In this document: in pieces, positions 2 through 49,686 of the stretch | How the letters are laid out: each line of letters begins with the position of its first letter | Position numbering within the stretch: position 1 is the first letter of the stretch | Source: Alphaproteobacteria bacterium | GTDB lineage: Bacteria > Pseudomonadota > Alphaproteobacteria > RF32 > CAG-239 | DNA: 64,000 nucleotides | Direction: 5' to 3' | Assembly (NCBI GenBank): GCA_017935485.1 | Contig: JAGBHO010000054.1 | Span: forward strand, 67,126-131,125 | Translations under genes and position numbers: made by a program | The notes under the pieces: generated by a model | Seen by the model: the letters and a program-made list of their open reading frames with translations, nothing else | What the model was told of the DNA's origin: nothing | The model's database searches: none

Positions 2-526
2 ACAACGCGTGAAAAACGGGTCGGAGAGCAGGACGGCGTGGATTATTATTTTATTAATGACCAGCAATATGACGAGTTTCTGGCGCAGGACGCTTTTTAT
101 GAATATGTCAACTCGCAATACGGGCCGCGTTACGGCACGCTGCGGTCGGAGGTGGACAGTTTTATTAATGTCGGGCAGGATGTATTGTTTGATATGGACT
201 GGCTGGGCGCGCGCCAGATGCGTGAGAAAGCCGGCGACGACGTGGTGACGATTTATCTTTTGCCGCCGTCAATCAAAGTTTTGCGCGAGCGGCTGGAAAA
301 GCGGGGAACGGATTCAAAAGAAACGATCGAAAAAAGAATGAGCGTTCTTTTGGACAAGATGAGTCATTGGAATGAATTTGACTATGTTATTGTGAATGAG
401 AATCTTGAAGACACCGTTTTTAAAATCCAAAAAATTATTTCCGGCGAGAGAATGAAGCGGGTTCGCCAGATCGGTCTGCCGGGTTTTGTTAAAGAACTGG
501 TTGCCGAAGCAAAAGAGGGAAAGTAG
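2..526 (+). CDS. gmk: guanylate kinase, 5'-truncated by window edge
   Basis: Frame is open from base 2. Translation starts TTREKRVGEQDGVDYYF (guanylate kinase TTRxxRxGExxGxDYxF motif) and runs into track ORF 38..526. Confidence 0.9.
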   Translation, partial: TTREKRVGEQDGVDYYFINDQQYDEFLAQDAFYEYVNSQYGPRYGTLRSEVDSFINVGQDVLFDMDWLGARQMREKAGDDVVTIYLLPPSIKVLRERLEKRGTDSKETIEKRMSVLLDKMSHWNEFDYVIVNENLEDTVFKIQKIISGERMKRVRQIGLPGFVKELVAEAKEGK

Positions 527-531
527 GACTT

Positions 532-1119
532 TTATTTTTCTTCTTCGTCTTCTTCCGGCGGAATATAAGCCTTAATCTGCTGCCGTTGTTCGGGTTTCAT
601 GACCTTGTAGACAGCGGCGGCGTTTTTTTCGGCACCGGCAACTTTGAGGAAAATGGCCTGCTGGTAGAGGTTGAAAGCATGAACCAGATCTTGCGGAATG
701 CCGATACCGCGGGCATTCATCCAGGCATAAATCTCAACCGCATGCGGGTTGTTTTCGGCAACGCGAAGCAATATCTCGTCCAATTCCACCGGCGTAACAC
801 GGTTTTCCTTAACGGCGAGAACGGCATTTTCCCATTTGCGCTGACGGGCAATACGGGCTTCTTCTTCTATTTTGTATTTGTCAACCAGCGGAATCTGATA
901 AGGCGTGATTTTAGGATCTTCGGCTTTGATTGCCAGCGGAATTTCGGTAATGCCGTCTTCAATCAGAACATCTGGAATTTTGCGGTTTTTAACATAAAGC
1001 GGCAGGTAACCCTCGTTGTCGGATTTTACCAGATCACGGTAGATCTCGTCTAAACTGGTGCTGTGCGCCGGCTTGACGAACAAAAAGGCGAGAAGTGTTA
1101 AAAATGCCAGCTTTTTCAT
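532..1119 (-). CDS. secreted protein with a Sel1/TPR-like repeat, function unknown
   Basis: 195-aa ORF with signal peptide MKKLAFLTLLAFLFVKPAHS. The segment YAWMNARGIGIPQDLVHAFNLYQQA resembles a Sel1 repeat. Confidence 0.6.
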   Translation of the reverse strand: MKKLAFLTLLAFLFVKPAHSTSLDEIYRDLVKSDNEGYLPLYVKNRKIPDVLIEDGITEIPLAIKAEDPKITPYQIPLVDKYKIEEEARIARQRKWENAVLAVKENRVTPVELDEILLRVAENNPHAVEIYAWMNARGIGIPQDLVHAFNLYQQAIFLKVAGAEKNAAAVYKVMKPEQRQQIKAYIPPEEDEEEK

Positions 1120-1242
1120 TTTCTTTGTGTCTTTTTCCTTAATTTTATTGTAATACTACTCAAGACTTGTTACATATTAAAGCAATATTTATGACTTATA
1201 AACAAGGCGCAATATGATTTTATCCGGTTGTCGGGAGGCAAA

Positions 1243-2178
1243 ATGAGAAAGATTTATAATTCAATTACGGAAATGGTGGGGCATACGCCGCTGCTGAAAT
1301 TGTCCCGTCTGGCAAAAAAACATAAGCTGAAGGCAAAGCTTTTGGGAAAATGCGAGGCGTATAATCCGGTTTTTTCGGTCAAAGACCGTGTGGCCAAGCA
1401 AATGTTGGAAAATGCCGAGAAATCCGGTTTGGTGACCGAAGATACGGTTTTTGTGGAGGCGACGTCCGGCAATACCGGCATTGCGCTGGCGGCAATGAGC
1501 GCAGCCAAGGGATATAAGCTGGTGATTACCATGCCGGAGAATATGTCAAAAGAAAGGATTATGCTGATGCGTCTTTTCGGCACCGAGGTTATTCTGACAC
1601 CGGCGGAAGACGGAATGTCCGGCGCTATCGCCAAGGCTGACATGCTGGCAGAAAAAAATCCGAATGTGATTTTGCTGCGTCAGTTTGAAAACCCGGCGAA
1701 TCCGGAAGCGCATAAGCTGGGGACCGGAATTGAGATATTTGAAGATACCGGCGGGGAGGTCGATGCCGTTGTTATTGCCGTCGGAACGTCCGGAACGCTG
1801 AACGGCGTTGCTTCTACGCTGAAAAGTTATAATCCCGATTTGTATGTGGCGGCGGTTGAGCCGAAAAACAGTGCGGTTTTGAGCGGCGGGGATAAGGGCG
1901 CTCATAAAATTCCGGGAATCGGTGCCGGATTTGTACCGGTATTTTATGACGCTTCGCTGGTTGACGAGGTTTTTGACATTGCGGACGAAGCGGCGGCAGC
2001 AATGGCCAGAGAATGTGCACAGACAGAGGGGCTGCCGGTGGGAATTTCGGCCGGTGCGGCACTTTCCGCCGCTGCAGAACTCGGTCGGAGGGATGAGATG
2101 AAAGGCAAAACGATTGTCGTTATTCTGCCTGATGCGGCCGAGCGCTATCTTTCAACCGGATTATTGGAGCAGGACTAA
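1243..2178 (+). CDS. cysK: cysteine synthase A (O-acetylserine sulfhydrylase)
   Basis: ATG at 1243 is preceded by a GGGAGG SD; the track ORF begins at upstream TTG 1228. Contains the PLP-lysine motif SVKDR and the SGNTG loop. Confidence 0.93.
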   Translation: MRKIYNSITEMVGHTPLLKLSRLAKKHKLKAKLLGKCEAYNPVFSVKDRVAKQMLENAEKSGLVTEDTVFVEATSGNTGIALAAMSAAKGYKLVITMPENMSKERIMLMRLFGTEVILTPAEDGMSGAIAKADMLAEKNPNVILLRQFENPANPEAHKLGTGIEIFEDTGGEVDAVVIAVGTSGTLNGVASTLKSYNPDLYVAAVEPKNSAVLSGGDKGAHKIPGIGAGFVPVFYDASLVDEVFDIADEAAAAMARECAQTEGLPVGISAGAALSAAAELGRRDEMKGKTIVVILPDAAERYLSTGLLEQD

Positions 2179-3173: not shown

Positions 3174-4280
3174 ATGAACCCGCAGTCTATTCTTGGAAAA
3201 TATTTGACCAAACAGATTATTTACAATTTTTTGGCCGTCTTGCTGATGGTTATGGGGATTGTCATGCTGTTTGAAGTGGTTGAACTGCTGCGCCGCGCTT
3301 CCGGACGTGATGACGCTTCTTTCGGTTTTATTATGCAGATGGCTTTTACCAAGCTGCCCAAAACGGTTGAGATGGTTTTTCCGTTTGTGATGATGATTGC
3401 GGCGATGATTACTTTTTGGAAGCTCAGCAAAAGCAACGAGTTTGTGATTATCCGCAGTGCAGGTGTTTCAATCTGGGGGTTTTTGGCGCCGGTGTTGCTT
3501 GCAACTTTTTTAATCGGCGTGGTGAACGTGACGGTTGTGAATCCGATTTCCGCGCGAATGAACGAGCTGTATGAAACGTTGAATTATCGTTTTAAGACCC
3601 GTAACCCCAAAGCGGTTTTGTTTTCCGAAAAAGGATTGTGGCTGCGGGAAGCAATTGCTGCCGACAAGTTTCTTTATTTACAGGCAAAGTCCGTGCGTCA
3701 GGAACAAGACAGCCTTTTTTTACGCGGCGTGACGATTTTGGAAATGAACAGGGAATCGCAGAATTTGCGGCGGGTAGAGGCTTATGCCGCCAATCTGAAA
3801 GGCGATGAATTTGAGCTGATTAACGTTAAGGTTTACGAACCCGGAAAACCGACGCTTTCTCTCGATAAGGTTATGTATAAGACAACGTTGACGATTGAAC
3901 GGATTAAAGAGAATTTTGTGGAACCGGAATCTATTTCTTTTTGGGATTTGCCGGATACCATTCGTTTTTATGAAATGTCAGGCTTTTCGGCGCAAAAGCA
4001 CTGGCTGCGCTATCTTTCCCTGCTGGCTTCGCCCTTTTTGCTCTGTTCCATGGTTCTTGTTGCCGCCGTTTTTGCCCTGCGTCCGAACAACCGGCGGGGT
4101 GGGGTGATGTATCTGATTGTCGGCGGCCTTTCCACCGGTTTTATTGTTTATTTTATGTCGCAGGTTATTTATGCTTTCGGCGTTAACAATGTTATTCCCG
4201 GTTTTTTGGCGGTTTGGACGCCGGCGTTAATTGTGATGATGATTAGTGTGTCGGTTCTTCTCCATCTCGAAGACGGGTAA
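3174..4280 (+). CDS. LPS export ABC permease, LptF/LptG (YjgP/YjgQ) family
   Basis: 368 aa with three N-terminal TM segments, a large periplasmic loop and three C-terminal TM segments, as in LptF/LptG. I cannot tell F from G by eye. Confidence 0.85.
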   Translation: MNPQSILGKYLTKQIIYNFLAVLLMVMGIVMLFEVVELLRRASGRDDASFGFIMQMAFTKLPKTVEMVFPFVMMIAAMITFWKLSKSNEFVIIRSAGVSIWGFLAPVLLATFLIGVVNVTVVNPISARMNELYETLNYRFKTRNPKAVLFSEKGLWLREAIAADKFLYLQAKSVRQEQDSLFLRGVTILEMNRESQNLRRVEAYAANLKGDEFELINVKVYEPGKPTLSLDKVMYKTTLTIERIKENFVEPESISFWDLPDTIRFYEMSGFSAQKHWLRYLSLLASPFLLCSMVLVAAVFALRPNNRRGGVMYLIVGGLSTGFIVYFMSQVIYAFGVNNVIPGFLAVWTPALIVMMISVSVLLHLEDG

Positions 4281-4404
4281 AAACTGCGTATAATGGCCGA
4301 CTAATACAGATTTAGCGGGATGGAGAAATGCTCATGTACTATTTTGTACACTCCGCTTTCTCCACCCTAAAATCTTATTATTCGGCTCATTCTCCGCAGT
4401 TTTT
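4280..4404 (+). repeat. nested-palindrome element unit A1 (full 125-bp unit with outer arms)
   Basis: Outer arms TAAAAACTGCG / CGCAGTTTTTA, second arms cgTATAATGGccgac / tcggCTCATTCTCcg, then TAATACAGA-stem-core(CTCATGTAC..GTACACTCC)-stem-CTTATTAT. Starts at the last A of the TAA stop. Confidence 0.9.
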
Positions 4405-4429
4405 ATAAAAACCGCGCAATACGGACGCT

Positions 4430-4509
4430 TAATACAGAAAAAGAAAATCCGGCTAAGTTACGTACGTCTATGTACGTGCCTGTCGCCGGATTTTCTTTTT
4501 CTTATTATC
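4430..4509 (+). repeat. nested-palindrome element unit A2 (80-bp inner unit)
   Basis: TAATACAGA + agaaaaagaaaatccggc / gccggattttctttttct perfect 18-bp stem around the loop taagttacgtacgtctatgtacgtgcctgtc, then CTTATTAT. Confidence 0.9.
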
Positions 4510-4512
4510 CGT

Positions 4513-4575
4513 CTTAGGCATCCAGGCGCGCTGCGGTTGCTCACGCTTTCCTTGCTTGCCAAGATGTTCCAAAGA
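4513..4575 (+). repeat. 63-nt tail module of the element array (copy 1 of 2)
   Basis: cttaggcatccaggcgcgctgcggttgctcacgctttccttgcttgccaagatgttccaaaga. A near-identical copy lies at 44535..44597, and its 28-nt core recurs at 28121 and 28513. Confidence 0.85.
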
Positions 4576-4585
4576 GCTTGCAGAC

Positions 4586-4613
4586 AAAAACAACCGGAGC
4601 AGCGGTTGTTTTT
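4586..4613. terminator. bidirectional intrinsic terminator
   Basis: aaaaacaaccg-gagcag-cggttgttttt: 11-bp stem with an A-run and a T-run, between convergent genes. Confidence 0.7.
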
Positions 4614-4672
4614 ACTTAGCGCTTCTATCGCGTTTTTTACAGCGGCCTGAAAGGGAAGACAGTTATCGGATT

Positions 4673-6037
4673 TTATTCTTCCAGCAGATTCAGGCTTTGG
4701 CTGGTTTTGGCAATGTCGGCCGTGATTTTGCGGGTTTCTTCGATGTTATCGGCGTTTTCAAAAACATACAGGGCGTCGTGGAAATATTCCAGAGCTTCTT
4801 CGAGCAGGGCTTTATCACCGGCATTTTTTCCGAGCCGGTAATAGATTTCGCCGATATGTTCCTGACTCTTGGCCCATTCCAACGGTTTGCGGCGTTCGGT
4901 GATGACCTTTTGCTGGTTTTTATAGCTGGAAATTGCCAATTCCGAAATTTCTTCGCTTTTGGTGAAGTTGCCGAGAAGCCCCAGCATATAGCCTAACTCA
5001 CTTTGAATCTGTGCCCAGAATTCCGGAAATAAAGACAAGGTATAAATTTTTTCGGTTTCCCGCAGCTGAAAGACGGCATCACGCAACGCCTGAATATCTT
5101 CTTTGTACAGCCAGTAGCTTAAAAACAAGTGTGACAGTTTGTATGAAATATAACCATAGTCGTAAGGATAATTATATTTGCTCAGATAGCGCTGTGCCTG
5201 CCGGTAATAGTTGATTGCTTCTTTGAAGTGACGGGCAGATTGTTTGGGGATGTATTTTGTGGAACAGTCATATAATTGTCCGAGGTGGTTGTATATGCAT
5301 CCCAAATGGATTGGCGCGGTTATCAGATCCTGATGTTTTAAGGCCGTATCAAACAGGTTTTTGACAATTTTAAAATCTTTGCCCTGACCGCGGTCAAAAC
5401 AATAACTCAGGTAGATAATGCCCAGAAAATTCATGATGTAAGGCATGTATTCGATAGAAAGGTTTTTGGCCGAATCGTCTTTGGTCAAAAAGCTTATTAT
5501 CCTTTTGAGCAGGTATCTTTTTTGAATTTTTTTCTCGCGGGAAAAAGTGTTCAGCGAGCTTACAACCGCGCCGTAAATCAGGTTGCCTACAGCCGGCGGA
5601 ATCGGTTGTCCGGAAGAGAGAAGTTCTGCCGGAATATATAGGCTGTCAAGCAATGAAACAAAAGCGCAGTCTTCGTTTTCATATTGTTTTTCGGTTTGGA
5701 AATTGAGCCTGATTTTGCTGCCTTCGCGATAGCCCCAAATCAAAACATCGGCCTGTGTTTTATCCAAAATGGTTTGGCCGCGGTCAATGAGGTCAAAAAG
5801 TGTCCGGCTTTCCAGATTTAAAAAAGTTTTAGAAAAAGGTTCGTCAAAATAAGACACTTCCAGACCGTCTTTGCTGCTGAGCAGGCGGGCAATCACTTCA
5901 CCGCTGTTGCTTTCAATGTTTTCCGAGAATTCAACGACGACAACCTTGAACTTTATTAAGTCCATGGCATTTGCGGCCGGATTTATATGATCCGGATGAG
6001 AATGGAAAATTTTATGAACAAAATCTGTCAGCCGCAT
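4673..6037 (-). CDS. TPR-like repeat protein, function unknown
   Basis: 454 aa. Its start overlaps the stop of the upstream gene at 6037. The C-terminal half is helical TPR-like repeats with no catalytic motif seen. Confidence 0.7.
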   Translation of the reverse strand: MRLTDFVHKIFHSHPDHINPAANAMDLIKFKVVVVEFSENIESNSGEVIARLLSSKDGLEVSYFDEPFSKTFLNLESRTLFDLIDRGQTILDKTQADVLIWGYREGSKIRLNFQTEKQYENEDCAFVSLLDSLYIPAELLSSGQPIPPAVGNLIYGAVVSSLNTFSREKKIQKRYLLKRIISFLTKDDSAKNLSIEYMPYIMNFLGIIYLSYCFDRGQGKDFKIVKNLFDTALKHQDLITAPIHLGCIYNHLGQLYDCSTKYIPKQSARHFKEAINYYRQAQRYLSKYNYPYDYGYISYKLSHLFLSYWLYKEDIQALRDAVFQLRETEKIYTLSLFPEFWAQIQSELGYMLGLLGNFTKSEEISELAISSYKNQQKVITERRKPLEWAKSQEHIGEIYYRLGKNAGDKALLEEALEYFHDALYVFENADNIEETRKITADIAKTSQSLNLLEE

Positions 6038-9986: not shown

Positions 9987-12464
9987 ATGACTGACAGATA
10001 TAACGGAAAAGGCTCTTTTGAGGAATGGGCCAAAGAATGGGCGATGGAAGACCGCTATAATTTTAAGACAATTGAGAAAAAATGGCAAAGCATCTGGGAT
10101 GAAGAAAAAGCCTATAAGGTTGATATTGATAAGAACAAAGAAAAATATTATGTTCTGGTTGAGTTTCCGTATCCGTCGGGCGCCGGCCTGCACGTGGGAC
10201 ATCCGCGCTCTTATACCGCTTTGGACGTGGTTGCCCGCAAAAAAAGAATGCAGGGTTTTAATGTTTTGTATCCGATGGGTTTTGACGCATTCGGTCTGCC
10301 GGCGGAAAATTATGCCATTAAGACCGGCGTGCATCCCGCCGTTTCGACCAAGGCCAATATTGAAAACTTTACCCGCCAGCTGAAATCAATCGGGTTCAGC
10401 TTTGACTGGGACAGAGCTTTTAATACCTGTGATCCGGAATATTACAAATGGACACAGTGGATGTTTATCAAGCTCTTTGAAAAAGGTCTGGCTTATAAAA
10501 GCAAGATGGCAATCAATTGGTGTCCGTCCTGCAAGGTCGGTCTGGCCAACGAAGAAGTTGTCAACGGCTGCTGCGAACGCTGCGGAGCGCAGGTTGTGCG
10601 CAAGGATAAAGAACAATGGATGGTGGCTATTACAAAATATGCCGATCGTTTGATTAACGATTTGGATGATCTGGATTTTATTGAGCGGGTTAAAGCGCAG
10701 CAGGTTAACTGGATCGGCCGTTCGGAAGGTGCGGAACTTGATTTTGATTTGACCGATGCGCAGGGGAATCCTCTGGACGGTAAAAAGCTCAAAGTCTTTA
10801 CCACGCGTCCGGATACGGCTTTCGGCGTTACTTATATGGTTATGGCGCCGGAACATGAATTTGTAACCGCATTAATGCCGCGATTTGAAAATCCGTCAGA
10901 AGTTCAGGCTTATGTTGAGGCCACGGCTAAAAAGTCTGAGTTGCAGCGAACAATGGATGACAGCAAGACCGGCGTTGAGCTTAAAGGCATTAAGGCCAGA
11001 AATCCTTTTAACGGCGCTTTGATTCCGGTGTTTATTTCCGATTATGTCCTGACCGGATACGGTACGGGTGCGATTATGGCGGTGCCGGCACATGACCAGC
11101 GTGACTATGATTTTGCCAAGGCGTTTAATTTGCCGATTATTCAGGTTTTGGCCGGCGGCGATATTTCCGAAAAAGCCTGGGAAGAAGACGGCGAGCATAT
11201 CAATTCAGGTTTTATGGACGGTATGAACAAAGAAGACGCCATGAAAGCTGCCGTTGAATTTGCCGAGAAAGGCGGGTTCGGAAAATCAAAAGTCAATTTC
11301 AAACTGCGTGACTGGGTGTTCTCCCGCCAGCGTTACTGGGGCGAACCGATACCGATGGTTTATTGCGAGCATTGCGGCTGGCAGCCGGTGCCGGAAGACC
11401 AGCTGCCGCTGACTTTGCCGGAGGTTCCCGATTACCTGCCGAATGATAACGGCGACTCTCCTTTGGCCAAGGCAACAGACTGGGTGAATACGACTTGTCC
11501 GAAATGCGGTGCCCATGCCCGCAGAGAAACGGACGTTATGCCGAACTGGGCCGGATCTTCATGGTATTTTCTGCGTTATTGCGATCCGCATAATGACAAG
11601 GCGTTTGCTTCCAAAGAAGCTTTGGATTATTGGATGAACGTTGACTGGTATAACGGTGGTATGGAACATACGACGCTGCACCTGCTGTATTCGCGTTTTT
11701 GGCACAAATTCCTTTATGACTGTGGTTATGTGCCGATGAAAGAGCCTTATCAGCGCCGGACGTCGCATGGTATGATTTTGGCCGAGAACGGTGAGAAAAT
11801 GTCAAAATCACGCGGCAACGTAATTAATCCGGATGATATTGTCAACAATTACGGCGCAGACAGTTTTCGTCTTTATGAAATGTTTATCGGGCCGTTTGAC
11901 CAAGTGGCAATGTGGTCGGAAGACAGTCTGAACGGCGTGTACCGTTTTGTCGGCAAGATTTATAATCTGTTCAGAAAAGTTACCAAAAATGCCAAGGCGT
12001 CGGCCAAAGATATTCAGATAATGCACAAAACCATTCTTGAAGTAACCGAGAGAATCGATCAGATGAAGTTTAATACGGCGGTTTCTTCTTTGATGACTTA
12101 TGTCAACCATTTGTCTTCTTTGGATGAGATTGCGCCTGAGCTTTATGAAAATCTTTTGCTTTTGATGTGTCCGTTTACACCGCATCTGGCTGAAGAAATG
12201 TGGGCGCGTATGGGGCACACAACTTTGGCTATTAAAGAACCGTGGCCGAAAGGTGATGCCAAACTGGCGGAAGAAAATACCGTGACTTATGCTGTTCAGA
12301 TTTGCGGCAAAATGCGCGGTACGATTGACCTGCCGAAAGATGCCCCGAGAGAAGAAGTTGAAAAGGCGGCTCTCTCTCTTGAAAACGTTAAGCGGCAGCT
12401 TGAAGGCAAGGAGATTAGAAAGGTTATAGTGGTGCCCAACAAAATTATCAACCTTGTCGCGTAA
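9987..12464 (+). CDS. leuS: leucyl-tRNA synthetase
   Basis: HVGH (HIGH-class) and KMSKS motifs. The alternative start ATG 10044 (MEDRYNFKTIEKKWQSIW) matches the usual LeuS N-terminus better. Confidence 0.95.
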   Translation: MTDRYNGKGSFEEWAKEWAMEDRYNFKTIEKKWQSIWDEEKAYKVDIDKNKEKYYVLVEFPYPSGAGLHVGHPRSYTALDVVARKKRMQGFNVLYPMGFDAFGLPAENYAIKTGVHPAVSTKANIENFTRQLKSIGFSFDWDRAFNTCDPEYYKWTQWMFIKLFEKGLAYKSKMAINWCPSCKVGLANEEVVNGCCERCGAQVVRKDKEQWMVAITKYADRLINDLDDLDFIERVKAQQVNWIGRSEGAELDFDLTDAQGNPLDGKKLKVFTTRPDTAFGVTYMVMAPEHEFVTALMPRFENPSEVQAYVEATAKKSELQRTMDDSKTGVELKGIKARNPFNGALIPVFISDYVLTGYGTGAIMAVPAHDQRDYDFAKAFNLPIIQVLAGGDISEKAWEEDGEHINSGFMDGMNKEDAMKAAVEFAEKGGFGKSKVNFKLRDWVFSRQRYWGEPIPMVYCEHCGWQPVPEDQLPLTLPEVPDYLPNDNGDSPLAKATDWVNTTCPKCGAHARRETDVMPNWAGSSWYFLRYCDPHNDKAFASKEALDYWMNVDWYNGGMEHTTLHLLYSRFWHKFLYDCGYVPMKEPYQRRTSHGMILAENGEKMSKSRGNVINPDDIVNNYGADSFRLYEMFIGPFDQVAMWSEDSLNGVYRFVGKIYNLFRKVTKNAKASAKDIQIMHKTILEVTERIDQMKFNTAVSSLMTYVNHLSSLDEIAPELYENLLLLMCPFTPHLAEEMWARMGHTTLAIKEPWPKGDAKLAEENTVTYAVQICGKMRGTIDLPKDAPREEVEKAALSLENVKRQLEGKEIRKVIVVPNKIINLVA

Positions 12465-12588
12465 AAACTGCGTATAAAGGCCGACTAATACAGATTTAGC
12501 GGGATGGAGAAATGCTCATGTACTATTTTGTACACTCCGCTTTCTCCACCCTAAAATCTTATTATTCGGCTCATTCTCCGCAGTTTTT
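12464..12588 (+). repeat. nested-palindrome element unit B1 (full unit)
   Basis: Differs from A1 at one position that I can see (tataaagg versus tataatgg). Starts at the last A of the leuS TAA. Confidence 0.9.
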
Positions 12589-12613
12589 ATAAAAACCGCG
12601 CTCTGTGGTCACC

Positions 12614-12690
12614 TAATACAGAAAAAGAAAATCCGGCTAAGTCATGTACCACCACGTACACTCCTGTCGCCGGATTTCCTTTTTCTTCTT
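12614..12690 (+). repeat. nested-palindrome element unit B2 (inner unit)
   Basis: Same middle stem as A2 (aaaatccggc/gccggattt) but with the canonical core ctaagtcatgtaccaccacgtacactcctgtc. Confidence 0.88.
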
Positions 12691-12777
12691 TTGGGGCTTT
12701 TGCGTAAAAAATTATGGACTTGCTGCGGAAATGCGGTTAAATTCATTGTAAGTGGTTTTTTTATAAAAAGGACGAAT

Positions 12778-21630: not shown

Positions 21631-21770
21631 TTTGTTTCTCCGGTTTTTTAGTTATTTATTTAAAATTTCCAAAGTCAAAACAGTGGAAATTCTCGGTTTA
21701 CAGCTCCTTATAGACAGTTTTTGTCGGCAAGTCAATGATTTTTTGAAGGAATTTTTGTATGGTAAAAAGA

Positions 21771-21874
21771 GGCGGAGAGAAATCCGGTGAGAAAATTAAT
21801 CTCGTAAATTGGGTTTACTTGCAAGGGTTTCTCTCCAAGGAATAAGGCGTTGTTTTGGCAACGCCTTTGTTTTT
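21771..21874 (+). ncRNA. candidate structured RNA / conserved 3' element, copy 1 (unverified)
   Basis: 12-bp stem ggagagaaatcc / gggtttctctcc enclosing about 42 nt, followed by aaggcgttg-ttttgg-caacgcctt + TGTTTTT. Only 2 differences in 103 nt versus copy 2. Confidence 0.3.
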
Positions 21875-22244
21875 AGTTTGTTGCGGAATCTTGGAATGTA
21901 TCGTCGAAGTAGTCTTTTCCTGTTACTGTCTTGTCACCGGTTGCGTATTGAACGATAGCGCCGGCAGCGGCCAAAATAGCCAAACCAACGGCCAGGGAAG
22001 CAAACGCGGACCATTTGATTTTGCCGAAAATAGCACCGAAGGCCAGTAAGACCAGACCGAAACCGCCGACAATAAACACAATGCTTTTTACATTCTGAAA
22101 AGTTGTGCCGGCTTTGGTTTTGGCAATATCCATCAAGCTGTTTTGTCCGCCGCCGGTGGCTGTTGCCATAGCCGATTCTGAAATGAGGACAAAGGCCAGA
22201 ATCAGGCAGATTGTCCAAATGTTTTTTCTGAGGAAGTTCATCAT
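21873..22244 (-). CDS. TrbC/VirB2-like type IV secretion pilin-like protein, paralogue 1
   Basis: 123 aa. Signal peptide ending AMA, then a GGG-containing mature N-terminus, then two hydrophobic helices separated by GKIKWS, as in VirB2 pilins. Confidence 0.6.
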   Translation of the reverse strand: MMNFLRKNIWTICLILAFVLISESAMATATGGGQNSLMDIAKTKAGTTFQNVKSIVFIVGGFGLVLLAFGAIFGKIKWSAFASLAVGLAILAAAGAIVQYATGDKTVTGKDYFDDTFQDSATN

Positions 22245-24869: not shown

Positions 24870-25247
24870 ATGTTTGGCTGGCTGGCAAAATTATTAATCT
24901 CGGGACCGATACAAGGCTCGGGTTGTGCGTGTTGCGAAGGAAAAAAGAAAAGATTGGAAAAAATGCAACAGGCGATTGCCGAGGGTGAGATTCCGGATTC
25001 CTTACAGTCCGAATCGGGGAAACTCAGTTTTAGTTCCGGCAGTTTTTCAGCGCATTTTAATCCGGACGGCAGCGGAGAGTTTGAATATTATGCCAAAAAT
25101 ACGGCAGAAGAAACCTGCAATTGCGGTGACGGATGTTCTTGCGGCGGAAGCTGCGGGGATGATGATGTCTGCCATTGCGGCCGAGGTGATGACTGCTGCA
25201 AGAAAACCGGAAAAAAACACGAAGGATGTTGTTGCGGAAAGCATTAA
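24870..25247 (+). CDS. Cys-rich protein with metallothionein-like C-terminal tail
   Basis: AAGGAG SD 8 nt upstream of the ATG. 125 aa; the last 45 aa carry 12 Cys (CNCGDGCSCGGSCGDDDVCHCGRGDDCCKKTGKKHEGCCCGKH), plus GCACCEG near the N-terminus. Confidence 0.7.
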   Translation: MFGWLAKLLISGPIQGSGCACCEGKKKRLEKMQQAIAEGEIPDSLQSESGKLSFSSGSFSAHFNPDGSGEFEYYAKNTAEETCNCGDGCSCGGSCGDDDVCHCGRGDDCCKKTGKKHEGCCCGKH

Positions 25248-25252
25248 GGAAA

Positions 25253-25356
25253 GGCGGAGAGAAATCCGGTGAGAAAATTAATCTCGTAAATTGGGTTTAC
25301 TTGCAAGGGTTTCTCTCCAAGGAATAAGGCGTTGTTCTGGCAACGCCTTTATTTTT
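25253..25356 (+). ncRNA. candidate structured RNA / conserved 3' element, copy 2 (unverified)
   Basis: Same stem-loop plus terminator as 21771..21874. Here it begins 6 nt after the stop of the Cys-rich gene on the same strand. Confidence 0.3.
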
Positions 25357-25726
25357 AGTTTGTTGCGGAATCTTGGAATGTATCTTTGAAATAGGAATCT
25401 TTTGTTGCTTGACTGTCGCCCGTTGCATATCTGACAATTGCACCGGCGGCGGCCAAAATAGCCAAACCAACGGCCAGAGAAGCAAAAGCCGACCATTTGA
25501 TTTTGCCGAAAATAGCACCGAATGCCAGTAAGACCAAACCAAAACCGCCGACAATAAACACAATGCTTTTTACGTTCTGAAAAGTTGTACCGGCTTTGGT
25601 CTTGGCAATATCCATCAAGCTGCCTTGTCCGCCGCCGGTATCGGCTGCCATAGCTGTTCCTGAAATGAGGACAAAGGCCAGAATCAGGCAGATTGTCCAA
25701 ATGTTTTTTCTGAGGAAGTTCATCAT
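25355..25726 (-). CDS. TrbC/VirB2-like pilin-like protein, paralogue 2
   Basis: 123 aa with 13 aa differences from paralogue 1, all near the signal-cleavage site or in the C-terminal tail. Confidence 0.6.
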   Translation of the reverse strand: MMNFLRKNIWTICLILAFVLISGTAMAADTGGGQGSLMDIAKTKAGTTFQNVKSIVFIVGGFGLVLLAFGAIFGKIKWSAFASLAVGLAILAAAGAIVRYATGDSQATKDSYFKDTFQDSATN

Positions 25727-28270: not shown

Positions 28271-28296
28271 GTATCGGCGGATTTGAACCCACGAGG
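28269..28296. other. rearranged tRNA-Arg fragments
   Basis: gagtatcggc (identical to tRNA positions 27962..27971) is fused to ggatttgaacccacgagg, the reverse complement of a T-arm copy (tcgtgggttcaaatcc versus tRNA tcgtgggttcgaatcc). Confidence 0.55.
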
Positions 28297-28662: not shown

Positions 28663-28671
28663 GTGTTGTCT

Positions 28672-41782: not shown

Positions 41783-44194
41783 ATGTTTGGTTTGAAAAAT
41801 TTTAAGACCTTTGCCGGTGCGTTGATGCTGGCGCTGGTCGGGGTTGTTCAGGGGGCATATGCTTCTGAAATTGACCTCAAAATTCCGTCTTTGGATGTGG
41901 AATACAACATCTTCGGTTATTCGGTTCTGGGTTCGCAGATTTTGCTGTATGGCATGAGTGTCTGCGTTTTGGGCATGCTTTTTGGTTTGTATGAGTTTCT
42001 TAAAATCAAAAAAATGCCTGCTCATGATGCCATGCTGAAGGTTTCGGAACTGATTTATGCAACCTGCAAAACTTATATGAAACAACAGGCTAAACTGCTT
42101 TTGGTTCTGGAAGTGTTTATTGCGGTTTGCATTTTTTACTATTTCTATTATCTCAATGCAACGCCGATGCCGAAAGTTCTGACTATCCTTTCCTGGTCGG
42201 TTCTGGGAATTCTCGGTTCTTATTCCGTGGCCTGGTTCGGCATGCGCATTAACAACTATGCCAATGCACGTACGGCTTTTTCTTCTTTGGAGGCAAAAGC
42301 TTATAAGGTTATGAGTCTGCCGTTGCGTTCCGGCATGTCTATCGGCGTTTTGCTGATTTGCGTTGAGCTGATTATGATGATTGCCATTCTTTTGTTTGTG
42401 CCGAAAGAAAGCGCCGGCGCCTGCTTTATCGGATTTGCCATCGGTGAATCGCTGGGTGCGGCGGCTTTGCGTATTTGCGGCGGCATTTTTACCAAGATTG
42501 CCGATATCGGTGCCGACCTGATGAAGATTATTTTCAAAATCGGCGAGGATGACGTTCGCAATCCGGGCGTCATTGCCGATTGTACCGGTGACAATGCCGG
42601 CGACTCCGTCGGGCCGACTGCCGACGGTTTTGAGACTTACGGCGTGACCGGCGTGGCGCTCATCAGCTTTATCGTTCTCGGCGCCGGCATGATGTATGCG
42701 CCGAACGGGGATCTGGCTCTGATGCCGAACGGCATTGATTTTCAGGCCCGTCTGATTGTCTGGATTTTTGCAATGCGTATCCTGATGATTATTACGTCGC
42801 TGATTTCTTATTGGTTTAACAACAAAGTTTCTTCCGCCCTTTACGGCAAAAAGAAGTTCTTTGATTTTGAAAAACCGCTGACAAGCCTGATTTGGTTTAC
42901 TTCTATCATCTCTATTGCCGTTACGTTCGGCGTATCTTATGTGATGATCGGCGATATCAGTCCGGATTTGTGGTGGAGATTGTCTCTGATTATCAGCTGC
43001 GGTACTCTGGCTGCTGCTCTGATTCCGGAGTTTACCAAAATCTTTACTTCTTCAAAATCCCAGCATGTGCAGGAAATTGTCAAATCCAGCCGTGAAGCCG
43101 GGGCTTCCCTGAACATTATTTCCGGTATCGTGGCCGGTAATTTCTCAGCTTTCTGGCAGGGTATCGTGATGGTTGGCCTGATGGTGGTTGCTTTCTTTAC
43201 CGCGCAATCAGGTCTTGGCGATTTTATGGTTTATCCGACAGTGTTTGCTTTCGGTCTGGTGGCATTCGGCATGCTCGGCATGGGGCCGGTTACGATTGCG
43301 GTAGACAGCTATGGTCCGGTTACCGACAATGCGCAATCTGTTTTTGAGTTGTCTCAGATTGAAAGCGTTAAGAACGTTAGCAAAGAGATTGAGAAAAAAT
43401 ACGATTTTAAACCGGATTTTGAACAAGGCAAGCATTTGCTTGAAGCTAACGACAGTGCCGGGAACACCTTTAAGGCAACAGCCAAGCCGGTTCTTATCGG
43501 TACGGCGGTTATCGGGGCTACGACAATGATTTTCTCAATCATTTTGCTGTTGAACCTGAAGCTTAATCTGTTGGATCCGCAGGTTCTGTTCGGTTTGATT
43601 CTCGGCGGTGCGGTAATTTACTGGTTCTCGGGCGCTTCCATGCAGGCGGTTTCGACCGGTGCTTATCGTGCGGTTGACTTTATTAAAAAACATATCAAGC
43701 TGAGCGGTACAAAGGCTGCTTCAAAGAAAGATTCTCAAGAAGTTGTTAAAATCTGCACAATCTATGCGCAAAAAGGGATGTTTAACATCTTTATCGTAAT
43801 CTTTTCCTTTACGATCGCCTTTGCCTGCTTTGATGCAAATCTGTTTGCAAGCTATCTGATTTCAATTGCCGTTTTTGGTTTGTTTCAGGCGCTGTTTATG
43901 GCGAATGCCGGCGGTGCATGGGATAATGCCAAAAAAGTGGTTGAGGTTGATTTGAACGAGAAAGGCACGCCGCTGCATGACGCTACCGTTGTCGGCGATA
44001 CGGTTGGAGATCCGTTCAAAGATACATCTTCCGTCGCTCTCAATCCGATTATCAAGTTTACGACCTTGTTCGGTTTGCTGGCGGTTGAAATGGCGGTTGC
44101 CGCACCGAGATGTGTTTCTCTCGGCCTGGGTATTTTCTTCTTATTGTTGGGGTTGGTGTTTGTATATCGGTCCTTCTACAAGATGAAAATATAA
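41783..44194 (+). CDS. hppA: membrane-bound pyrophosphatase (M-PPase), divergent
   Basis: 803 aa with GGIFTKIADIGADL, GDTVGDPFKDTS, GGAWDNAKK, and Lys in GNTFKA. The acidic motif reads DCTGDNAGDSVGPTADGFETY rather than the canonical form. Confidence 0.9.
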   Translation: MFGLKNFKTFAGALMLALVGVVQGAYASEIDLKIPSLDVEYNIFGYSVLGSQILLYGMSVCVLGMLFGLYEFLKIKKMPAHDAMLKVSELIYATCKTYMKQQAKLLLVLEVFIAVCIFYYFYYLNATPMPKVLTILSWSVLGILGSYSVAWFGMRINNYANARTAFSSLEAKAYKVMSLPLRSGMSIGVLLICVELIMMIAILLFVPKESAGACFIGFAIGESLGAAALRICGGIFTKIADIGADLMKIIFKIGEDDVRNPGVIADCTGDNAGDSVGPTADGFETYGVTGVALISFIVLGAGMMYAPNGDLALMPNGIDFQARLIVWIFAMRILMIITSLISYWFNNKVSSALYGKKKFFDFEKPLTSLIWFTSIISIAVTFGVSYVMIGDISPDLWWRLSLIISCGTLAAALIPEFTKIFTSSKSQHVQEIVKSSREAGASLNIISGIVAGNFSAFWQGIVMVGLMVVAFFTAQSGLGDFMVYPTVFAFGLVAFGMLGMGPVTIAVDSYGPVTDNAQSVFELSQIESVKNVSKEIEKKYDFKPDFEQGKHLLEANDSAGNTFKATAKPVLIGTAVIGATTMIFSIILLLNLKLNLLDPQVLFGLILGGAVIYWFSGASMQAVSTGAYRAVDFIKKHIKLSGTKAASKKDSQEVVKICTIYAQKGMFNIFIVIFSFTIAFACFDANLFASYLISIAVFGLFQALFMANAGGAWDNAKKVVEVDLNEKGTPLHDATVVGDTVGDPFKDTSSVALNPIIKFTTLFGLLAVEMAVAAPRCVSLGLGIFFLLLGLVFVYRSFYKMKI

Positions 44195-44318
44195 AAAATC
44201 ACGTATAATGGTCTATTAATACAGAAAAAATCTTTAAGGCTAAGTCATGTACCACTACGTACACTCCTGTCGCCTTAAAGGTTTTTTCTTATTACTAGCC
44301 TCATTCTCCGTAATTTTT
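44194..44318 (+). repeat. nested-palindrome element unit C1 (full unit)
   Basis: Starts at the hppA TAA. Outer arms aaaaatcacgTATAATGGtctat / actagcCTCATTCTCcgtaattttt; stem tctttaaggc/gccttaaagg; canonical core. Confidence 0.88.
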
Positions 44319-44320
44319 GT

Positions 44321-44444
44321 AAACACCGCGTATAAAGGGCTATTAATACAGAAATAGCAAAAGGAAGTTTCCTCACGTACTGCTATGTACGCTGCGGTAC
44401 TTCCTTTTTTATTTCTTATTACTAGCCTCTTTTTCCGCGTTTTT
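44321..44444 (+). repeat. nested-palindrome element unit C2 (full unit)
   Basis: cgTATAAAGGgctat...actagcCTCTTTTTCcg; stem caaaaggaagt/acttcctttt; core ttcctcacgtactgctatgtacgctgcggt. Confidence 0.85.
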
Positions 44445-44453
44445 ATAAAACCC

Positions 44454-44531
44454 TAATACAGAAAAAAATTTTAGCTAAGTCATGTAATATTATGTACACT
44501 CCTGTCGCTAAAATTCTTTTTTCTTATTATC
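44454..44531 (+). repeat. nested-palindrome element unit C3 (inner unit)
   Basis: TAATACAGA + aaaaaaattttagc / gctaaaattcttttt + CTTATTAT; core ctaagtcatgtaatattatgtacactcctgtc. Confidence 0.88.
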
Positions 44532-44534
44532 TGA

Positions 44535-44597
44535 CTTAGGCATCCGGGCTCGCTGCGGTTGCTTACGCTTTCCTTGCTTGCCAAGATGTTCCAAAGA
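44535..44597 (+). repeat. 63-nt tail module (copy 2 of 2)
   Basis: cttaggcatccgggctcgctgcggttgcttacgctttccttgcttgccaagatgttccaaaga; same length as 4513..4575 with few substitutions. Confidence 0.85.
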
Positions 44598-44732
44598 CAC
44601 AGAGTTAGTTATTATTTGTTGTTTGGTGCTGATATTCGTTTAAGGCATTGCGGAGAGTAGTGAATATTTCTTCTGTATCTTCTTGAAAGAGATAAGCAGG
44701 GACTTGTATGCAATATTTATTATACTGTCTTT

Positions 44733-48600: not shown

Positions 48601-49338
48601 ATGTTTAGATTAGATGGAAAAGTTGCCCTGATTACCGGTGCCGCCGGCGGACTGGGTGATAAAATCGCCCGTACGCTGCATGCTCAGGGAGCAACTCTGG
48701 CTTTGACCGATATGCGTGAAGAGCCGATGCTTAAGCTGAAGGAAGAGCTGGGTTCCAATGTTGAGGTTTTTACCGCCAACCTGACAAATCCTGAAGATGT
48801 AAAATCTTTGGTTGAGAAAGTTGAGGAAAAACTTGGCCGTATTGATATTTTGGTAAACAATGCCGGTTTGACACGCGACAATCTCTTTATCAGAATGAGT
48901 GATGAAGACTGGCAGCTGGTTTTGGATGTTAACCTTTCAGCCGGTTTCAAATTGGCAAAAGCTGCCGTTCGCGGCATGATGAAGCGCCGTTTCGGCCGTA
49001 TCATCGGTATTGCCTCGGTTGTCGGTGTTACCGGAAATGCCGGTCAGGCCAACTATTCCGCTTCCAAGGCCGGTATGATCGCCATGAACAAATGTCTGGC
49101 TCAGGAGGTCGGTTCGCGCGGCATTACCGTAAATTCAATTGCTCCGGGCTTTATCCGCACGCCGATGACCGATGTTTTGCCTGATGATGTTAAAGCCGCC
49201 CTTTTGGCCAAAATTCCGGAAGGCAAGCTTGGCGAAGCTCAGGATATTGCGAACGTTGTTGCATTCCTTGCGTCTGATGAAGCGCAATATATTACGGGAC
49301 AGACTATTAATATTAATGGCGGAATGGCCATGATATAA
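48601..49338 (+). CDS. fabG: 3-oxoacyl-ACP reductase
   Basis: TGAAGGLG, NNAG and YSASKAG SDR motifs; follows fabD. Confidence 0.95.
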   Translation: MFRLDGKVALITGAAGGLGDKIARTLHAQGATLALTDMREEPMLKLKEELGSNVEVFTANLTNPEDVKSLVEKVEEKLGRIDILVNNAGLTRDNLFIRMSDEDWQLVLDVNLSAGFKLAKAAVRGMMKRRFGRIIGIASVVGVTGNAGQANYSASKAGMIAMNKCLAQEVGSRGITVNSIAPGFIRTPMTDVLPDDVKAALLAKIPEGKLGEAQDIANVVAFLASDEAQYITGQTININGGMAMI

Positions 49339-49460
49339 AACCGCGTATAATGGTCGACTAATACAGATTTAGCGGGTTGGAGAAATGCTCATGTACTACT
49401 TTGTACACTCCGCTTTCTCCACCCTAAAATCTTATTATTCGACTCATTCTCCGCGGTTTT
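49338..49460 (+). repeat. nested-palindrome element unit D1 (full unit)
   Basis: Same as A1/B1 except for paired substitutions in both arms: accgcg/cgcggt versus actgcg/cgcagt, and ggtcgac/tcgactc versus ggccgac/tcggctc. Confidence 0.9.
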
Positions 49461-49477
49461 ATAAAACTATGGGCACC

Positions 49478-49557
49478 TAATACAGAAAAGGAAATTTTGG
49501 CTAAGTCATGTATGTCTCTATACACTCCTGTCGCCAAAATTTTCTTTTCTTATTATC
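49478..49557 (+). repeat. nested-palindrome element unit D2 (inner unit)
   Basis: Stem ggaaattttggc/gccaaaattttc. In the core the inner stem changes to tgtat/ataca (compensated). Confidence 0.88.
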
Positions 49558-49686
49558 TGCCTCATATATCAAGTTTTAATTTTTTAAGACCAGTTATGCT
49601 TGTTTCTTTTCTTCTTATTTTTTGTACATTAGTTTTTGCTTCACAAACAGCATTTTTTTAAGATTATTCCTATGGAAGTCTGGTAC

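Follow-up and report, generated by a model that had tools for sequence, protein, structure and literature searches.

Stop-codon-abutting palindromic repeats with replication-strand polarity in uncultured gut Alphaproteobacteria

The 64-kb stretch of DNA analyzed here (the window) carries four short arrays of a palindromic repeat, each of which opens at the TAA stop codon of a gene on the plus strand. The stops are those of lptG (4278-4280), leuS (12462-12464), the H+-pyrophosphatase gene (44192-44194), and fabG (49336-49338). The sequence TAATACAGA occurs nine times in the window against an expectation of 0.23, exclusively on the plus strand, at positions 4302, 4430, 12486, 12614, 44217, 44344, 44454, 49359, and 49478. 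A covariance model run with its filters off recovers the same nine plus-strand units (64-137 bits); its remaining matches in the window, at 13-49 bits, are weak and come from the minus strand of these palindromes. The original prediction of nine units at four loci, all in one orientation and each array starting at the TAA of a plus-strand gene, is thus borne out by two approaches. The units and associated features are as follows.

4278..4405, + strand: A1, complete 128-nt hairpin (covariance model, 136 bits; folding)
4406..4513, + strand: A2, 5′ arm, core, and beginning of the 3′ arm (covariance model; folding)
4514..4624, + strand: nested 111-nt repeat of a second family, interrupting the 3′ shell of A2
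4625..4639, + strand: A2, remaining 3′ shell and outer arm CTATCGCGTTTTTTA (folding of the joined halves)
4639..4654, + strand: ACAGCGGCCTGAAAGG motif, found again after the T-run of array-final elements
12462..12589, + strand: B1, between leuS and lptE, opening at the leuS TAA (132 bits)
12590..12692, + strand: B2, with a CTCTGTGG 5′ shell and a 'b' core (66 bits)
44192..44319, + strand: C1, complete, opening at the H+-pyrophosphatase TAA (115 bits)
44320..44445, + strand: C2, complete, with the variant core CCTCACGTAC...GTACGCTGCGG (96 bits)
44446..44535, + strand: C3, with a reduced 5′ shell (64 bits)
44536..44599, + strand: second-family repeat, truncated to its first 64 nt (repeat-family comparison)
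49336..49461, + strand: D1, complete, opening at the fabG TAA (137 bits)
49462..49578, + strand: D2, with a 'b' core and the apex TGTAT/ATACA (92 bits)

The first three bases of A1 are the lptG stop codon itself, followed by a TATAATGG/CTCATTCTCC shell and an 'a' core (GCTCATGTAC...GTACACTCCGC). A1 and B1 are near-identical even though their loci are unrelated, with a single-base difference in box1. Relative to A1, D1 has compensated changes in stems P1 and P2, and a one-base change in its A-run is matched by one in its T-run. The 3′ shell of B2 is absent or degenerate, that of C3 is broken by the second-family repeat fragment, and part of the 5′ shell of D2 is deleted. A2 has the 5′ shell TAAAAACCGCG-CAATACGG-ACGCT and a core with the apex ACGTAC/GTACGT. 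It had been described as a unit lacking outer arms and trailed by a 63-nt tail; it is instead a complete element split by the nested 111-nt repeat, and without the insert it folds into one 127-nt hairpin (−57.9 kcal/mol) with outer arms TAAAAACCGCG/CGCGTTTTTTA. The ACAGCGGCCTGAAAGG motif at 4639..4654 probably represents what is left of an additional unit, now decayed, namely its 5′ shell.

A full element is a single hairpin of 125-128 nt with three nested layers. The shell comprises the A-run, stem P1, an internal-loop box (e.g., GTATAATGG/CTCATTCTCC), and stem P2. The middle layer is an invariant helix, TAATA(C)AGA/TCTTATTA, which encloses a core and apex consisting of stem P3, conserved loops, and CATGTAC-N6-GTACAC. 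As RNA, region 4278-4406, which contains the imperfect palindrome recognized earlier at the lptG locus, indeed folds as one hairpin with an energy of −55.4 kcal/mol (z = −11.8), matched by 0 of 200 shuffles; as DNA, the values are −33.2 kcal/mol and z = −9.6. The features described from the window alone are likewise confirmed: flanks that are conserved, a middle stem that varies while its arms stay complementary, and an inner stem that covaries. The invariant helix harbors a bulged C and conserved pyrimidine-pyrimidine mismatches, and looks like a protein-recognized hairpin. The element ends follow the consensus AAAA-NNN-CG ... CG-NNN-TTTT (146 flanks, 147 elements), and the geometry of P1 is constant, with AAAA followed by 3-4 variable nucleotides and CG. 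P1 was considered as the stem of a pre-existing terminator and rejected, since its geometry is fixed and copying between loci A and B included P1 as well as the rest of the element. Box1 TATAAT was rejected as a −10 promoter on the grounds that other subtypes carry CTCTGT, TCTAGC, or TTCTGC, which covary with the 3′ box. Stops in all three frames are not general among subtypes and were discarded as a designed feature.

The family is found in uncultured gut Alphaproteobacteria of human, ruminant, chicken, and mouse, in at least 117 stretches from at least 57 species-level genomes. A further 97 metagenome contigs that carry it served as the source of a replicate set. Two rules, stop-codon abutment and strand polarity, hold across approximately 230 further arrays. 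The infB gene is followed by an element in 12 of 13 cases, and the position of the element is conserved across species after infB, lptG, ftsK, and hppA.

Among 147 distinct copies, 141 adopt the single-hairpin fold. Over 51 proposed pairs, pairing is present in 89.3% of cells, compared with 68.1% in shuffles, none of 500 of which attains that value, and with 42-51% for slid partners. Compensated cells number 1643 versus 562 in shuffles, and 38 of the 51 pairs show compensated changes, so that the covariation holds with the larger number of copies. Whole modules, both arms jointly, are also swapped between copies and yield part of the apparent covariation. Because the fold is retained as the sequence changes, the family is a living, structure-dependent repeat rather than junk. 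The earlier proposal that selection acts on a folded structure, of RNA or of single-stranded DNA, and that the repeat is not dead and drifting, is therefore supported, with covariation inflated in part by module exchange.

Strong covariation, together with the excess of G-U over A-C combinations (271 vs 140), is a point in favor of a purely cis-acting structured RNA, such as a 3′-UTR element, an elaborate terminator, or a processed sRNA, that is inherited vertically with occasional duplication and has no DNA mobility of its own. However, the strongest conservation lies in the helices and not in the loops, and the G-U excess could have a mutational rather than a selective cause, as it also matches a C-to-T mutation bias on the lagging-strand template.

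The outer stem opens 0-5 nt past the TAA or TAG stop of a co-oriented gene. Stop offsets were measured to the invariant TAATACAGA, the outermost MFE pair being unsuitable due to spurious flank pairing. The first element begins 18-27 nt ahead of the core in 89 of 102 cases (38 of 47 in the replicate set), and in 11 more of the 102 the ORF stop falls inside the element. A co-oriented ORF lies upstream of 119 of 125 arrays; among copies beyond the window, the preference for gene 3′ ends is stricter than had been supposed. Orientation is never mixed within an array (0/136; 0/103 in the replicate set). Upstream of position −23, the stop codon is the sole conserved feature. A short target word (TAAAA) was rejected as the cause of abutment, with only 64 of 818 free intergenic top-strand sites (about 8%) located at leading-gene stops.

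The abutted stops are TAA, TAG, and TGA in 69, 19, and 1 cases, respectively, versus a background of 554, 144, and 120. This near absence of TGA agrees with an ordinary MITE moved by an IS630/Tc1-type DDE transposase with TA insertion, ERIC-like and of the type proposed for Correia elements, in that a TAA would be restored whenever an element inserted at the TA of a stop codon. The length and palindromic build agree as well, and 57 of 109 copies have the ends T-AAAA...TTTT-A. However, at TAG stops the element begins after the G, and the bases near the termini vary yet stay complementary, unlike terminal inverted repeats. Double-stranded cut-and-paste moreover predicts neither strand polarity nor a fixed gene orientation, and no transposase was found in the window or the sampled loci. 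Such an origin is distinctly unlikely. ERIC/IRU (127 bp) and Correia elements do share several properties with the family, being imperfect palindromes of ~125-155 nt that are found in transcribed intergenic regions, in many cases shortly after a stop, with longer forms produced by internal insertions. Compensated substitutions have been reported in ERIC, and Correia elements serve as terminators and RNase III substrates. The sequences of both are unrelated to the family, and a Correia likeness (TATAGTGG..., GTAC-AAATA-GTAC) was judged superficial. To our knowledge, ERIC/IRU and Correia elements occur in both orientations with no replication-strand polarity.

Positions +19 to +22 are occupied by T in 75-88% of copies, and there is G+C in the base helix, such that the elements present the stable hairpin, ensuing T-run, and gene 3′-end location of an intrinsic terminator. 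Element-free orthologues have a plain intrinsic terminator in the same slot. With its A-run opening at the stop codon and its T-run closing the hairpin, the element occupies the native terminator slot and, because of this position, would form the 3′ end of the upstream gene's transcript. Judging from sequence, its role is most likely that of a terminator, an attenuator, or a 3′ stabilizer hairpin. Not all elements can be efficient terminators, since about one-third of those between co-directional genes are tightly sandwiched in likely operons (e.g., leuS-lptE). The terminator geometry, the co-orientation with an abutting upstream ORF, and the cross-species positions after the four genes named above all favor the structured RNA; recurrence behind a given gene across many species is compatible with old vertical inheritance as well.

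Placement at or overlapping an upstream stop codon in one orientation is also a property of integron attC sites, which are imperfect palindromes of similar size (~125 nt in Vibrio VCRs) and act as folded single strands. As in attC sites, structure is conserved while sequence is free, extrahelical bases are present, and there is strand specificity; in addition, the gene content adjoining the fabG array is variable. In contrast to attC sites, the position profiles at both ends do not give RYYYAAC/GTTRRRY, and no R''/R' core sites, cassettes, or integrase accompany the copies. Cassette-like ORFs flanked by elements yielded nothing notable. The copies are scattered 5-30 kb apart behind housekeeping genes (infB, lptG, leuS, fabG) in conserved synteny, and the tyrosine recombinases found in the window and the sampled loci are XerC/D-like only, in housekeeping contexts. 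That the elements are attC-like sites for an integron-type tyrosine recombinase is highly improbable.

Replication-strand polarity is the most informative feature of the family. In ~95-99% of loci, the top strand coincides with the G-rich (leading) strand. For arrays, the count on that strand is 129 of 130, as opposed to 545 of 825 for ORFs; after correction for coding-strand bias, 101-103 of 104 loci have the top strand on the G-rich strand, as do 65 of 69 in the replicate set. An element is located at the stop of 96 of 519 leading-strand ORFs versus 0 of 264 lagging-strand ORFs, a difference that a structured RNA leaves unaccounted for. The leading strand carries the same sequence as the lagging-strand template; the top strand is thus found on the lagging-strand template, as in IS200/IS605-type elements. 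Insertion of IS200/IS605 goes into the lagging-strand template (PMC6006769). Such near-absolute placement suggests that insertion or maintenance would act on single-stranded DNA at the replication fork.

Replication-strand polarity was absent from the original prediction.

The idea that the top strand forms the more stable hairpin proved wrong: in 134-141 of 147 copies (141 with DNA parameters) it is the bottom strand that folds more stably, with mean stabilities of −24 (top) versus −28 (bottom) kcal/mol. It follows that the lagging-strand template carries the weaker of the two hairpins, and the polarity could then have a selective origin instead of a mechanistic one. On this basis, the repeat could be enzyme-free, copied by ectopic gene conversion or template switching between A-run/T-run terminators, with selection fixing the orientation, given that the bottom-strand hairpin, being more stable, would do harm on the lagging-strand template. 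Occupation of the native terminator slot, the lack of any transposase in the window and sampled loci, and the frequent recombination at shared boxes implied by module reassortment and recombinant arrays (e.g., L006) are in line with this explanation. However, the stability gap is modest and seems too small for a 95-99% bias, and conversion between symmetric A-run/T-run flanks should also serve lagging-strand genes. Conserved asymmetric loops and the invariant helix, moreover, imply a specific binding partner. An enzyme-free origin is thus considered unlikely.

Comparison of strains reveals turnover of the arrays. Behind identical LptG or FabG proteins, arrays vary by whole elements and also show allele replacement, apical inversion, and nested insertions, while shell, core, and apex modules reassort among copies. 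Between strains 1.9% apart, A1 differs by one compensated pair only. No length variation among strains was seen at three window genes with plain terminators, and exact-protein look-ups for the leuS and pyrophosphatase products returned no record. The strain comparisons recovered no clean empty site or target duplication, and the differences could equally be explained by deletion between TAAAAAC direct repeats. Gain, loss, and replacement of whole elements between strains 1-2% apart, as well as the inverted apex in natural strains, count against a vertically inherited structured RNA, which is doubtful overall.

Searches for a partner enzyme were negative. As predicted, no transposase, RAYT, or integrase was found in the window: Pfam detects no transposase, integrase, RT, or HUH domain in its 58 ORFs, and tblastn with approximate query sequences for IS200 TnpA, E. 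coli RAYT, and IntI1 returned nothing. The same approach gave no Y1 transposase or RAYT in ~1 Mb of element-bearing loci, which sample ~1% of each genome, and no mobility gene in 0.72 Mb of metagenome loci with the same approximate queries. A match to a catalogued family, named beforehand as a refutation, was not found in Rfam or in plasmid and phage collections. Rfam contains no match to the element at gathering or E-value thresholds; its sole match in the window is a tRNA, and sub-threshold matches on 4200-4700 (13-23 bits) are chance hairpin matches. The main element has no match in viral contigs or in plasmid and phage collections, and a literature search found no description of it. By these searches, the family is previously undescribed. 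As far as we found, the combination of polarity, exact TAA/TAG abutment, and a three-layer structure with an invariant helix occurs in no described bacterial repeat family.

The best explanation places the family nearest in kind to REP/BIME/REPIN sequences and to hairpin-ended IS200/IS605 derivatives. Like the former, it consists of palindromes present in many copies between genes, at gene 3′ ends and within operons, forms mosaic modular arrays with several subfamilies per genome, and serves as an insertion hot spot for other elements. REP/BIME/REPIN hairpins are thought to be processed as single-stranded DNA and have known roles as mRNA 3′ stabilizers and terminators. In contrast to a REP (20-40 bp) or an inverted doublet, each copy is one long three-layer hairpin, with exact stop-codon abutment and no GTAG or CGTC tag in the consensus of 146 flanks and 147 elements. 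The copies share one orientation, whereas BIMEs alternate, and no RAYT was found in ~1.7 Mb of element-bearing DNA (tblastn) or in the window (Pfam). The likeness to IS200/IS605 and PATEs lies in a strongly biased orientation that puts the active strand on the lagging-strand template; IS200/IS605 elements also share imperfect hairpins with extrahelical bases and no obvious target duplication. These elements carry a pair of separate hairpins near their ends and insert 3′ of a constant word of 4-5 nt, whereas the family has a single hairpin, no conserved flanking word beyond TA(A/G), and no TnpA found. Mycobacterial MIRUs are also intercistronic and operon-oriented, with ends overlapping the upstream stop codon; however, they are direct-repeat units with small ORFs, do not form hairpins, and have no reported strand polarity.

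We tentatively favor, at somewhat short of even confidence, a family of non-autonomous, structure-defined palindromic repeats that is new, REP/BIME-like, occupies the terminator slot, and spreads as single-stranded DNA at the replication fork. Y1 HUH transposases act on single-stranded DNA at the replication fork, and insertion or maintenance of the repeats would similarly proceed there, through a hypothetical enzyme. Spread would involve copying between loci and turnover between strains, both observed in the sequence comparisons, and modules would reassort through recombination at the invariant boxes. A more specific version, in which a fork-coupled single-strand mechanism detects where translation of a leading-strand gene ends, at a TAA or TAG stop on the lagging-strand template, and places a self-folding terminator module at exactly that point, is doubtful; if true, it would represent a new target choice for mobile DNA and a case in which a genome's terminators are supplied by a mobile element.

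The family adds a well-defined, abundant, and structurally constrained repeat to a widespread uncultured gut clade, and it accounts for assemblies of these genomes breaking or varying at gene ends. A dedicated enzyme, if it exists, would recognize a long DNA hairpin and choose gene ends, which would be of interest for mobile-element biology and possibly for targeted insertion tools. If there is no enzyme, the repeats offer a clean natural system for replication-linked palindrome orientation and upkeep of pairing. The second-family 111-nt repeat has two hairpins, the second of which is terminator-like.

The original prediction of nine units in one orientation was borne out: the nonamer TAATACAGA occurs nine times in the window, always on the + strand (expected 0.23), and a covariance model run with filters off returns the same nine units and no others, at 64-137 bits on the + strand and with palindromic shadows of 13-49 bits on the minus strand. 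The units form four arrays, all of which start, as had also been claimed, at the TAA of a + strand gene.

4278-4654, + strand, lptG array, beginning at the TAA of lptG
12462-12692, + strand, leuS array, beginning at the TAA of leuS
44192-44599, + strand, array of the H+-pyrophosphatase gene, beginning at that gene's TAA
49336-49578, + strand, fabG array, beginning at the TAA of fabG
4406-4513 and 4625-4639, + strand, halves of a split element flanking a 111-nt second-family repeat at 4514-4624

The first element (4278-4405) folds as RNA into a single hairpin of -55.4 kcal/mol (z = -11.8); its DNA fold reaches -33.2 kcal/mol (z = -9.6). What had been read in the lptG array as a unit lacking outer arms and followed by a 63-nt tail is really one complete element split by a nested repeat. 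With the insert taken out, the two halves close as a hairpin of -57.9 kcal/mol.

When 147 distinct full copies of other genomes are brought into the comparison, a fixed plan of ~125 nt emerges, listed here from 5' to 3'.

P1 stem, 5' end: AAAA, 3-4 variable nt, CG
5' box1, after P1: GTATAATGG, GTATAACGG, GTCTAGCTGG, GCTCTGTGG, GTTCTGCGG, GTATTTTGG and similar
P2 stem: 4-5 variable nt
Invariant segment after P2: TAATA-C-AGA
P3 stem: 15-20 variable nt
5' internal loop: GCTCA or GCTAAGTCA
P4 stem and loop: TGTAC-N6-GTACA
3' internal loop: CTCCGC or CTCCTGTCGC
After the 3' internal loop: P3', invariant TCTTATTA, P2'
3' box1: CTCATTCTCC, CTCGTTCTCC, CACACGCTATCC, CTCACATATC and similar
3' end of the element: P1' and TTTT

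Subtypes of the 5' box1 covary with those of the 3' box1 (AATG/CATT, AACG/CGTT, TGTG/CACA, TAGC/GCTA), and the boxes retain one or two pyrimidine-pyrimidine mismatches and a bulged C. Position profiles of the element flanks show no conserved sequence outside -23/+23.

The fold of the element is maintained. A single hairpin closing a few bases from the ends is found in 141 of the 147 copies. When the 51-pair structure taken from per-sequence folds is counted on the 147-copy alignment, standard pairs occupy 89.3% of cells, compared with 68.1% in shuffles (0/500 attain the observed value) and 42-51% when partners are slid. Both sides change in 38 of the 51 pairs, and many pairs display three to five Watson-Crick types with mismatches nearly nil; columns 66/104, for example, hold AU 47, GC 47, UA 44, CG 4, and 5 unpaired. 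Compensated cells number 1643 versus 562 in shuffles, a count that is inflated because modules exchange with both arms jointly. Such exchange, at the invariant boxes, is indicated by identical cores that bear different shells and apical loops (12 copies with one P3 carry 11 P1 variants and 9 loop variants). Within one genome, compensated changes in P1 and P2 distinguish the first elements of the lptG and fabG arrays, and their A-runs and T-runs carry matching one-base changes. Between two strains whose flanking DNA is 1.9% apart, the sole difference in the first lptG element is one compensated pair (AAAAAC/GTTTTT vs AAGAAC/GTTCTT).

One rival explanation holds that the element acts as RNA only. 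G-U-type cells do outnumber A-C-type cells (271 vs 140); such an excess would also arise from C-to-T mutation pressure on the lagging-strand template and is therefore no proof of an RNA fold. Where cores are otherwise identical, the 6-nt apical loop (alignment columns 82-88) varies much more than the remaining positions. Its composition is T-rich (T 58%, G 7%), and many of its variants are distinguished by C/T changes, the pattern that exposure of the loop as single-stranded DNA, with deamination, would be expected to leave.

This is a real and abundant family that extends across the clade. Among the matches listed, exact-pattern scanning, with each species represented by one genome, places the main element in at least 117 stretches from 57 assemblies, and the hosts, from human, ruminant, chicken, mouse, and reindeer guts, are uncultured Alphaproteobacteria throughout (variously labeled Rhodospirillales, "Azospirillum sp.", or Candidatus Scatocola), with the exception of one Firmicutes-binned contig. 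A scan of metagenome contigs adds 97 further stretches from gut and rumen samples. The main element has no match in viral contigs, plasmids, or the phage collection, in which only the nested "tail" repeat matched; no Rfam family matches it, and a full-text literature search found no description of the family. The exceptional contig (CABQMM010000291.1, 2.7 kb, from a MAG labeled "uncultured Firmicutes bacterium") carries two typical elements and is probably a binning error rather than a second host phylum.

The main element obeys two strict placement rules, the first of which concerns gene ends. Among the matches listed, the 179 units of the genome set group into 136 arrays, comprising 100 singles, 30 doubles, 5 triples, and 1 quadruple. 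None is of mixed orientation, and in 119 of 125 arrays the element and the ORF upstream of it point the same way. Abutment was assessed on 119 non-redundant first-in-array elements, for 102 of which a co-oriented ORF (≥80 codons) has its end no more than 60 nt away. In 89 of these 102 the stop lies 18-27 nt upstream of TAATACAGA, such that the outer stem begins 0-5 nt past the stop or in overlap with it; another 11 have an ORF that runs into the element and stops at the TAA/TAG of box1 or the TAA of TAATACAGA, and only 2 have a larger spacing. The abutted stops are TAA 69, TAG 19, and TGA 1, against a background of 554, 144, and 120. The metagenome replicate agrees (abutment in 38/47; TAA 28, TAG 9, TGA 1). 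A TA-targeting DDE MITE is a rival reading of the family that bears on this placement. A short target word was rejected as the cause of the stop position; only 64 of 818 free top-strand intergenic TAAAA lie at stops of leading genes.

The upstream genes are diverse housekeeping genes (infB, lptG, ftsK, hppA, leuS, pgk, fabG, lpxA, ychF, rlmE, and gatC), and an element is present behind 12 of 13 infB orthologues. Since C-termini are equally long in orthologues with and without the element, the protein is not truncated by it. Plain terminators in the genome of the window, too, frequently begin with an A-run directly at the stop codon, and in lptG orthologues without the element a plain terminator occupies the same place. 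On the basis of this terminator-like geometry and position, the element may serve as the 3' hairpin of the upstream transcript. Some elements likely lie inside operons (e.g., the leuS-lptE array); leuS and lptE overlap in an element-free species.

The second rule concerns the replication strand. Of the 130 arrays with |skew| >0.05, 129 have the element's top strand on the G-rich strand, where only 545 of 825 ORFs lie, and an element stands behind 96 of 519 leading-strand ORFs versus 0 of 264 lagging-strand ORFs. Because coding strands are themselves somewhat G-rich, two skew checks were run: the element's strand remains the G-rich one even within ORFs that face the opposite way (64/77 loci), and subtracting a coding-bias term, even an exaggerated one, keeps the sign in 101-103 of 104 loci. 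The replicate set shows the same polarity (65/69 loci). In the window, the skew is positive in all 4-kb bins, and ORFs are divided between the minus (31) and plus (27) strands, yet 4/4 arrays are on +. The G-rich leading strand has the sequence of the lagging-strand template, and the template strand is single-stranded at the fork. Unexpectedly, the bottom strand is more stable than the top in 134 of 147 copies (RNA parameters) or 141 of 147 (DNA parameters), and thus the weaker hairpin is the one on the lagging-strand template.

Only at one locus (L040, 1-2400) do elements occur in both orientations, on either side of a 2-kb low-GC island (31-33% GC). The island encodes a lipoprotein and has an HNH-endonuclease-like ORF (369-1394, minus strand), and the + strand element at this locus looks like a true lagging-strand exception.

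The main element undergoes copying from locus to locus and turnover among strains. The lptG and leuS arrays have a two-element block in common at 90% identity. Among contigs with identical LptG protein, the arrays behind lptG differ: element "a" is present or missing, the second element is swapped for another allele (shell and core jointly), the nested tail repeat occurs in some contigs and is missing from others, one contig carries a further unit together with a tail, and one array is recombinant with its junction at TAATACAGA. Some strains with identical FabG have an extra third-family hairpin between the stop codon and the first element. The apex of that first element is inverted in two independent assemblies (L130 and L136, ~2380-2430), the apical part being flipped between the P3 arms (...GGAGAAAGCGGAGTGTACAAAGTAGTACATGAGCATTTCTCC...); thus, the apex flips naturally. 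In both cases of a longer array, the extra element adjoins the stop codon. Three genes with plain terminators, compared among strains, show no such variation. Gene content downstream of the fabG array also differs by strain (window 49579-50632 vs L129, L131, L132, and L134); some strains have a 299-aa minus-strand ORF with no Pfam match, and others a 110-aa ASCH-domain gene on the plus strand, upstream of grpE.

The strand polarity combined with stop-codon abutment is the aspect deserving further attention. Placement on the lagging-strand template suggests that insertion or maintenance would involve a fork-coupled step on a single strand, similar to that of Y1 HUH systems; the lagging-strand template is the known substrate of IS200/IS605 transposition (PMC6006769). 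No responsible enzyme is seen in the window or in ~1.7 Mb of element-bearing DNA (~1% of each genome), and a rival account invokes conversion that needs no enzyme, combined with selection on hairpin asymmetry. REP/BIME elements and IS200/IS605 derivatives are closest to the family in behavior, and ERIC or Correia elements are similar in look. However, the family lacks the GTAG or CGTC tag and alternating orientation of REP/BIME, as well as the subterminal hairpin pair with a fixed target word of IS200/IS605. A further rival, that the elements are attC-like sites, faces the lack of the attC core sites that characterize integrons.

The nested second family (~111 nt; TTAGGCATCYAGGC...CAAGATGTTCCAAAGA..., with a terminator-like hairpin at its end) resembles a transposase-less IS200/IS605 derivative in its two-hairpin build. 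It occurs at 4514-4624 and 44536-44599 in the window and in L024, L027, L035, L073, L079, L086, L108, L109, and L250 (element-bearing loci of other assemblies), and inserts at several points of the main element, inside the 3' shell or just after the apex GTAC. Its orientation relative to the main element is constant (leading strand 18/18). Two copies are present in MT838567.1, an unverified "Bacteriophage sp." contig from human feces. A third family of hairpins abutting stop codons, TAAAACTTGCAAAAGGCCGAT...CGTGTAC-N8-GTACACG...ATCGGCCTTTATCAAGTTTTA, is found at L128 (2236-2345), L117, L130, L136, L137, L024, L098, and L126 (leading strand 8/8), with a degenerate remnant at ~49579-49670 in the window; it has in common with the main family only the A-run/T-run ends and the GTAC apex. 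Further subfamilies keep box1 and the apex and have the TAATACAGA helix replaced, e.g., by TAAAGTCAAAAT or TAGAGGCATTT in L072, L076, and L120. After the last element of many arrays (window 4639-4654 and ~20 other loci) comes a T-run plus ACAG(C/T)G(G/C)C(YTGAAAGG), a motif that in L003, L031, and L035 is the 5' shell of another, degenerate unit.

Elsewhere in the window, tRNA-Arg(CCG) (27940-28016) is followed by 275-bp direct repeats (27998-28272 and 28390-28664, 97% identical), the first of which overlaps the tRNA 3' end; the pair could represent an att-like duplication left by an element that integrated or was excised. At 21763-22062 and 25245-25544 lies a 300-bp direct repeat (88% identical) that covers a TrbC/VirB2-type pilin gene (21873-22244) and, near 25278-25700, a second copy; the two bracket several small ORFs without a Pfam match, beside dnaB.
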